A stretch of DNA of 35,441 nucleotides, from the IMG/VR virus record IMGVR_UViG_2529293216_000013; one strand, given 5' to 3'. Below are positions 18,388-19,161 of the stretch, one piece after another. Position numbers and translations under genes: made by a program. This DNA comes from a virus (taxonomy: Duplodnaviria > Heunggongvirae > Uroviricota > Caudoviricetes). How positions within the stretch are numbered: the first letter of the stretch is position 1; each line of letters starts with the position of its first letter. The notes below the pieces were generated by a model. It was not told where the DNA came from. It saw only the letters and a list, made by a program, of their open reading frames with translations, and did not search any database.

Positions 18388-19161
18388 TCAAAAATTAGGT
18401 GAGTAACGGACCGGGGACATAGCTCCTTTTTTTCTTAATTCATCTGGTATTTTTTTTCCAAGATAAAGATTTGCTATTTCAGGTGGGGCTTCTCGACCTT
18501 CAAAACCATAGCGAGAACTTTGTGTTGCCTCAAAGTCCGGATCCTCGTCCCAGTATTTCATCGTAGGGAAATTTTCACGTGTTGATTTGAGCCATTTATC
18601 AGCAATGAAAACCCCTCGAACGATCCCCCTTACAGTAGCAAGAATGACTTCTGCTTGGCTGGCGCGAGAGACATTAATGCGCCAGCTAAATCGAACCGCA
18701 TCATAAAGCTCTGAATCCTTTGCACTTCTGTTAACGGAAATCATTAATGCTTTATGATGAAATGTTATGGTTTCGGGTTGATATGTTGCTATCAACTCTT
18801 TGACATGCGCGGCGCCGAATTCATTGCTGCCAGCACCATTCATGATATTCGTTAACCCAGGGTAGGCATCAATAAGTGCTGCTTCGACTTCGTACGCCGT
18901 CTTTTCATCAGTCATTCCGTGTCGATGGATGACATGGATAACCTCAAGTCCTGCTAACCTTATTTCTCTAATTTGCTTTAGCTTGTTGCTCAGTAACTCG
19001 TCATCATCAGTCGCTGCCACTTCACCGCGCATATGGGCAAATACGCGGTTACCTTTGCCTTTCCCTACATAGAAGGTGCTTCCGTCCCTCGGATCAATCA
19101 ATCGGTATACATACCAGCCAAGGTGTTCAATTACTCCAGAAGGAAACTCAGTAATATCCAT
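18388..19161 (-). CDS. GIY-YIG nuclease-domain protein with uncharacterised C-terminal domain
   Basis: N-terminal [29 protein letters not shown] fits the GIY-(x10)-YIG plus conserved Arg pattern; start placed at MDITEF. Confidence 0.5.

Follow-up and report, generated by a model that had tools for sequence, protein, structure and literature searches.

At the edge of a prophage remnant, a stretch of viral DNA of 35,441 nucleotides (here called the window) carries a gene with an N-terminal GIY-YIG motif. Genes in such positions may serve defence, anti-defence or homing, and an earlier note on this DNA, made from the letters alone, had named all three roles without choosing between them. We therefore asked which of these roles the encoded protein has, what its C-terminal part does and whether the gene is likely to be active in its present surroundings.

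Identity and architecture of the gene

The open reading frame occupies exactly the positions that had been assigned to the gene, 18388 to 19161, and lies on the minus strand. It starts with ATG at 19161, ends with the TGA stop at 18388-18390 and encodes 257 amino acids (ORF list and translation). The frame can also be read from an in-frame TTG at 19212, but the ATG start was preferred because RefSeq annotates the 774-nt version in matching genomes and because the crystallised protein discussed below begins with MDITEF. The gene has a G+C content of 43.9%. Its product is identical to RefSeq WP_000355484.1, which is common in E. coli O157:H7; the DNA is 100% identical to that of many O157:H7 genomes, where the protein is labelled "LEM-3-like GIY-YIG domain-containing protein".

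The protein was compared with profile and structure databases. The PADLOC profile PD-T4-3 (PDLC04031) was matched over its full length, with E=2.4e-140 and residues 1-256 aligned to profile positions 1-255 of 256. In PADLOC and DefenseFinder this family stands for a single-gene, modification-dependent GIY-YIG defence against T-even phages. In Pfam, the LEM-3-like GIY-YIG family PF22945 (LEM-3_GIY-YIG) was matched at 54.2 bits against a cut-off of 27 (aa 28-110), and the generic GIY-YIG model PF01541 (aa 16-100) scored 13.9, below its threshold of 22.6. The C-terminal part matched no Pfam family, and the NCBIfam scan of the protein matched no family. Among the PHROGs, phrog_5356, whose function is unknown, was matched with E=2e-143. 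The letters quoted earlier for the N-terminal motif are all there, and in light of the PF22945, PADLOC and phrog_5356 matches the motif is no chance resemblance.

Alignments over all 257 residues were obtained with the crystal structures 9U75/9U8D (E=3.7e-172) and 9U7U/9U7Z (E=1.1e-150). Identity was 98.4% (253/257 residues) to 9U75, the CMoRE protein of E. coli O157:H7, and 85.2% over 257 aa to 9U7U, the CMoRE protein of APEC O1. Entry 9U75 is the apo form of the O157:H7 enzyme, 9U8D its complex with 5hm-dCTP and 9U7Z another ligand complex (PMC12923530). Single-sequence AlphaFold2 gave a model of the 257-aa protein with a mean pLDDT of 39.9 and a pTM of 0.37. This model was too poor to be used, so the fold assignment rests on the published crystal structures; the GIY-YIG fold, on which the earlier assignment depended, has been solved in the 98.4%-identical protein (PMC12923530).

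Four positions differ between the window protein and 9U75, namely T51 (A in 9U75), E55 (D), Q169 (K) and N197 (H). With E55 and N197 the window protein agrees with the active APEC O1 enzyme. None of the four substitutions touches a residue named in the structural study, nor does any alter the charge of the acidic loop. Length, architecture, the named catalytic, loop, interface and ligand residues and the genomic locus are all as in the O157:H7 enzyme.

The N-terminal nuclease domain corresponds to about 18832..19119 on the minus strand, its approximate boundaries being set by the matches to PF22945 and PF01541. Its motif reads W16-Y17-V-Y19-R-L, followed by F30-Y31-V-G-K-G-K-G-N-R39. The nuclease domain of CMoRE is described as having an extra tyrosine ("GIYxY-YIG") and a 15-residue acidic insert above the active site (PMC12923530), and all three tyrosines of this pattern, Y17, Y19 and Y31, are there. 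Every residue named in that study is retained, namely Y17, Y19, Y31, R80, V92, L96, Y127 and the acidic run. The acidic run D52-D53-D54-E55 (18997..19008, minus strand) was located by residue check and is homologous to the autoinhibitory α2-α3 loop of 9U75 and 9U7U; it reads DDDE in the window protein and the APEC O1 enzyme and DDDD in 9U75. The tetramer-interface residues V92 and L96 are kept, and the β1-β2 region is identical to that of 9U75.

The catalytic Arg and Glu are left unnumbered in the main text of the structural study (PMC12923530). The window protein was aligned with four homologues of 31-46% identity, from the jumbo phages Moabite, OBP and N1M2 and from E. coli phage PhiR41_1. 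In this alignment Y17, Y19, Y31, R39, E93 and N105 are invariant, and from it, together with the usual GIY-YIG pattern, we take R39 and E93 to be the catalytic Arg and Glu. Whatever their numbering, the catalytic residues are necessarily retained, because all positions other than 51, 55, 169 and 197 are identical to 9U75. The presence of both residues in alignments, which had been proposed as a check on the assignment, is thus borne out.

The C-terminal part, from the end of the linker, covers about aa 127-257 (18391..18783, minus strand) and differs from 9U75 only at Q169 and N197. It contains Y127, whose main-chain oxygen touches the 5-hydroxyl of 5hmC in the crystal (PMC12923530), and the complexes 9U7Z and 9U8D assign modification sensing to this domain. 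The earlier note was right that a further part follows the nuclease motif, but its estimate of about 170 aa was too long; the Pfam domain ends near aa 110 and the 5hmC contact is Y127, which leaves about 130-145 aa. Nor is the function of this part unknown, as had been stated. It is a 5hmC/5ghmC-sensing domain, for which a ligand-bound structure (9U8D) exists in the 98.4%-identical protein.

All the features of CMoRE/PD-T4-3 that can be read from a sequence are found in the window protein, and by this comparison the window gene is an intact CMoRE (PD-T4-3) gene, already known and characterised structurally and biochemically. With a published mechanism, four crystal structures and recognition by both PADLOC and DefenseFinder, the biology of the window gene itself adds nothing new.

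Published activity and proposed mode of action

PD-T4-3 was renamed CMoRE in a study of the proteins of O157:H7, APEC O1 and Klebsiella (Liu et al., Nat Commun 2026, PMC12923530). The founding member is attributed through that study to E. coli ECOR68 (Vassallo et al. 2022, PMC9519451); in a text search, the main text of PMC9519451 did not contain the name "PD-T4-3" and mentioned a GIY-YIG nuclease once. Under its native promoter, the O157:H7 gene reduced the plating of T2, T4 and T6 some 10^5-fold, and cells carrying it survived infection at high multiplicity, which indicates direct defence rather than abortive infection (PMC12923530). Purified CMoRE degraded T-even DNA as well as PCR products with 5hmC or 5ghmC and spared C and 5mC; in line with this, T4(hmC) remained sensitive and T4(C) escaped, and only modified DNA was bound in gel-shift experiments (PMC12923530). 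Sequenced digestion products gave the cleavage site CN11/N9G with 2-nt 3' overhangs and a need for two modified sites; across T4 no strict sequence requirement was seen, and unmodified DNA was left uncut (PMC12923530). Mutation of the active-site tyrosines abolished the activity of the 98.4%-identical protein. The 4A mutant of the acidic run was more active, cut ordinary DNA, lost specificity and was toxic. The enzyme is a tetramer, and either V92S/L96S or deletion of the β1-β2 loop disrupted both the oligomer and defence (all PMC12923530). Independent evidence comes from the clinical isolate NILS69, where deletion of PD-T4-3 sensitised the strain to two phages, and from K-12, where cloned PD-T4-3 protected against four Tevenvirinae (bioRxiv 10.1101/2024.12.20.629700).

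The window gene almost certainly encodes a CMoRE that works by this published anti-T-even mechanism, with the behaviour of the present allele and its expression from the native upstream region being inferred. The sequence of events would be as follows. A T-even-type phage would inject DNA that has 5hmC or glucosylated 5hmC in place of cytosine. A CMoRE dimer would then attach through its C-terminal domains to two modified cytosines spaced about 21 bp from each other, and the N-terminal GIY-YIG domains would cut both strands between them (CN11/N9G, 2-nt 3' overhangs). Ordinary and 5mC DNA, which should bind weakly, would be repelled by the run of four acidic residues over the active site; because of this repulsion the host chromosome would be spared and a methyltransferase partner would not be needed. 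The protein would act as a tetramer, a dimer of dimers, and would defend the cell directly rather than by abortive infection. No methyltransferase gene adjoins CMoRE in the window (ORF list and Pfam annotation of the neighbours).

For the allele itself, similarity to the published protein is the expectation. Two of the four substitutions, T51 and E55, lie in or beside the autoinhibitory loop. In our judgement the protein with all four of them probably acts like the published one.

Of the three roles proposed for the gene, defence is the one that holds for the window protein: PD-T4-3/CMoRE is proven to act against T-even phages, and neither an anti-defence nor a homing function is supported. 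Two further classes were considered and rejected. A type II GIY-YIG restriction enzyme of the Eco29kI/Hpy188I type does not fit, with no adjoining methyltransferase and with the near-identical enzyme sparing unmodified DNA (PMC12923530). An abortive-infection toxin was rejected as well; the published defence is non-abortive (PMC12923530). CMoRE is a known obstacle to therapeutic phages of the T-even type on strains such as O157:H7; it has also been proposed as a reagent for 5hmC mapping.

PvuRts1I and AbaSI cut at a fixed distance from the modified base, about 11-13/9-10 nt, and leave 2-nt 3' overhangs, which is near the CN11/N9G of CMoRE. PvuRts1I combines a PD-(D/E)XK nuclease domain with an SRA-like sensor, and these proteins are unrelated to CMoRE. 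Like CMoRE they are type IV enzymes that work without a methylase and recognise 5hmC and 5ghmC but not C (PMC12923530). For the sensor domain of CMoRE its authors found no homologue by sequence or by structure (PMC12923530). In structure, the nuclease domain comes nearest to the N-terminal GIY-YIG domain of UvrC (1YCZ), in which the Arg and Glu are conserved (PMC12923530). However, UvrC is a repair enzyme, not a defence protein, and lacks the extra tyrosine of GIYxY, the 15-residue acidic insert and a modification-sensing domain.

The four phage homologues bear on the homing function that had been considered for the gene. They are encoded by Serratia phage Moabite, Pseudomonas phage OBP, Klebsiella phage N1M2 and PhiR41_1 (phage loci L007 3001-3765, L008 2992-3753, L009 2998-3744 and L010 2956-3723). 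All are full-length proteins of about 250 aa with the same two-domain length as CMoRE, but they are only 31-46% identical to it and the run of four acidic residues is missing. A free-standing GIY-YIG homing endonuclease would promote the spread of the gene that encodes it by cleaving a specific sequence in related phages, and the jumbo-phage homologues are indeed annotated as "putative homing nuclease"; the window protein also gave a weak match to phrog_314, "homing endonuclease" (E=0.0021, aa 17-149). These labels, however, are unverified annotations, and no homing-type DNA-binding module was found by Pfam. The C-terminal domain binds a modified base rather than a sequence, with unmodified DNA left uncut (PMC12923530), and the gene sits in prophage cargo beside an att scar, a setting that is neither an intron nor a gap between conserved phage genes. 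We regard a homing function as next to impossible, and the "homing nuclease" labels of the phage homologues are probably wrong. A homing endonuclease of the I-TevI type in particular was rejected, there being neither sequence-specific C-terminal modules (Pfam) nor a homing context. The homologues of the jumbo phages and PhiR41_1 might instead serve competition between phages. The hosts of these genes are virulent jumbo phages, except that PhiR41_1 is a 108-kb circular phage genome with a parA-type partition gene nearby, and none of them is a prophage remnant.

Flanks, distribution and expression

The gene lies, as had been described, between an invertase and the prophage end. Convergent with its 3' end is a pinE-type serine DNA invertase (17773..18327, plus strand; Pfam Resolvase with E=9.2e-52 and HTH_7), which is annotated as pinE in matching genomes and lies outside the CMoRE defence system. 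On the upstream side, 177 bp from the start codon, a 73-nt 3' fragment of tRNA-Ser (19338..19410, plus strand) marks the edge of the prophage remnant as an att-site scar. BLAST against annotated genomes identified it: across its 73 nt it shares 97.3% identity with the tRNA-Ser gene that is annotated in almost every E. coli genome. ARAGORN found no intact tRNA anywhere in the window. Rfam at gathering thresholds did not report the scar, and in E-value mode it gave weak partial tRNA-like matches there. Past the fragment follow an AraC-family regulator, an IS integrase-core fragment and a P4-type integrase. CMoRE therefore stands as a single gene, flanked by the convergent invertase, the tRNA-Ser fragment and the AraC regulator.

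NJS001, F1273 and WCHEC020031 share this arrangement (pinE or tail-fibre genes, then CMoRE, the tRNA-Ser fragment, AraC and the IS fragment), and in each of these three other genomes the tRNA-Ser fragment occupies the equivalent place. Of 5426 complete E. coli genomes, 838 (~15%) carry the CMoRE gene at a nucleotide identity of at least 95%. In the plasmid collection, tblastn returned 181 records, of which 8 reached at least 95% identity. One record filed as an E. coli plasmid (NZ_CP081704.1, locus L006, 43.7 kb, circular) turned out to be the complete genome of a temperate phage, which has a P27-type terminase, an HK97-type head and a contractile tail. Between its tail-fibre genes and its integrase (19691-23542), an identical CMoRE stands beside a type II restriction enzyme and a cytosine methyltransferase, and together with this restriction-modification pair it is a small defence island in the cargo region. 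An exact 42-nt stretch of the tRNA-Ser fragment has no match in this phage genome, so the scar belongs to the chromosomal locus and not to the phage. The setting as a whole is consistent with a defence moron that is carried by a phage and lies at the edge of a prophage.

The non-coding region upstream of the gene (19162..19337, minus strand) is 100% identical to that of O157:H7 genomes and is presumed to hold the native promoter. A consensus scan of 18250-19450 found no sigma-70-like site upstream of CMoRE on the minus strand and no terminator between the convergent stops of pinE and CMoRE; the number of promoter and terminator matches over this interval was not above that in shuffled sequence. 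With the coding strand empty in the promoter scan, expression from the native upstream region is assumed because the native-promoter result was published for near-identical DNA.

The empty scan raises the possibility that the gene is an inactive relic, silenced by its four substitutions or by loss of its promoter in a decayed and rearranged prophage. The prophage is indeed a degraded remnant, and IS fragments and a fragmented Lamassu system lie close by. On the other hand, the frame is intact and of full length, and hundreds of genomes, as well as a complete phage, have kept the identical protein. The substitutions are conservative, two of them agree with an active orthologue, and upstream the DNA does not differ from that of O157:H7 strains, in which the native promoter is functional. 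Silencing is thus highly improbable, and an active CMoRE, presumably expressed from its own upstream region, is the preferred reading of the locus.

Prophage mosaic and the neighbouring Mom function

More unusual than the CMoRE gene is the mosaic of prophages in which it lies. Relative to O157:H7 strain F1273, the window is composed, over positions 1-19900, of three parts. Positions 1-11315 are the reverse complement of the early and lysis region of the thrW prophage. Positions ~11313-17710 are the right end of a Mu-like prophage, which in F1273 is located in nadB, 3 Mb away, and which carries mom, com, the DUF6645/SASA protein described below, a gin-type invertase and an invertible tail-fibre segment. 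From 17699 onward the window follows the pinE-CMoRE locus. The first junction (11300-11330) falls exactly at the Mu-like end TGTATAGCGCGG..., where the target shares only GTGT. The second (17690-17715) falls exactly within AAACCAACGTT, the 11 bp that form the shared core of the invertase crossover site. Both junctions are missing from all 5426 complete E. coli genomes, and the 11-bp overlap is too short to account for an assembly error. The arrangement suggests that a Mu-like phage transposed into the thrW prophage and that a gix x pix (Gin/Pin) inversion of ~24 kb between the prophages came after. Such an inter-prophage crossover would have placed the mom-gin end beside pinE and CMoRE.

A full-length Mom adenine-modification gene of the Mu-like prophage lies ~6 kb from CMoRE (11443-12180, minus strand; PF25680, E=4e-77); com is found just downstream of mom in coordinates. 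This neighbourhood raises the question whether the CMoRE of the window has a wider range and also cuts DNA with the Mom-type modification N6-carbamoylmethyl-adenine, in conflict with the mom-carrying prophage. A precedent exists in PD-T4-3Capno, a Capnocytophaga homologue that is ~48% identical to the E. coli founder. This protein degraded T4 DNA but not T4-GT7 DNA, and predicted active-site mutants failed; it was recovered in a selection against Mu and additionally degraded Mom-modified Mu genomic DNA in vitro (PMC12366544). For CMoRE itself, substrate plasticity was remarked on, and 5hmC is bound at the rim of the sensing domain and not inside a pocket (PMC12923530), which also favours a wider range, as does the presence of a full Mom protein in the window. 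However, the O157:H7 enzyme is reported to be specific for 5hmC and 5ghmC, with no action on Mu shown (PMC12923530), and a Mu-like prophage and CMoRE are found stably together in O157:H7 genomes. Cleavage of Mom-modified DNA by the window enzyme is therefore unlikely, and it would be an addition to the anti-T-even mechanism, not a replacement for it. If it were true of the E. coli enzyme, the cell would hold a restriction enzyme against the modification of its neighbouring Mu-like prophage. A built-in conflict between prophages, in which the enzyme is aimed at the modification made once the neighbouring prophage is induced, must be rated as quite improbable for this locus.

Other genes of the window were noted in passing. 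Between the gin-type invertase and mom, a 679-aa protein (13562-15601, minus strand) has a SASA sialate O-acetylesterase-like domain (aa 116-312) and a DUF6645 domain (aa 524-642) and no PADLOC match. The Mu-like phage may use it as an accessory protein that modifies surface glycans or is associated with the tail. Beyond CMoRE, a P4-type satellite with its integrase at 21641-22873 carries a Lamassu system as cargo (22877-26153). Here LmuA is broken into two ORFs (22877-23293 and 23266-23883) and LmuB into three (24307-24966, 24997-25587 and 25587-26153), with LmuC (23868-24341) intact, so that the system looks pseudogenised; RefSeq names the equivalent genes "ABC-three component system" proteins. 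Inside the same satellite, two RNAs scored above their Rfam gathering scores, both on the plus strand: the Hfq-binding sRNA isrK (29407-29484, 71.9 bits) and the C4 antisense RNA (29553-29640, 84 bits).
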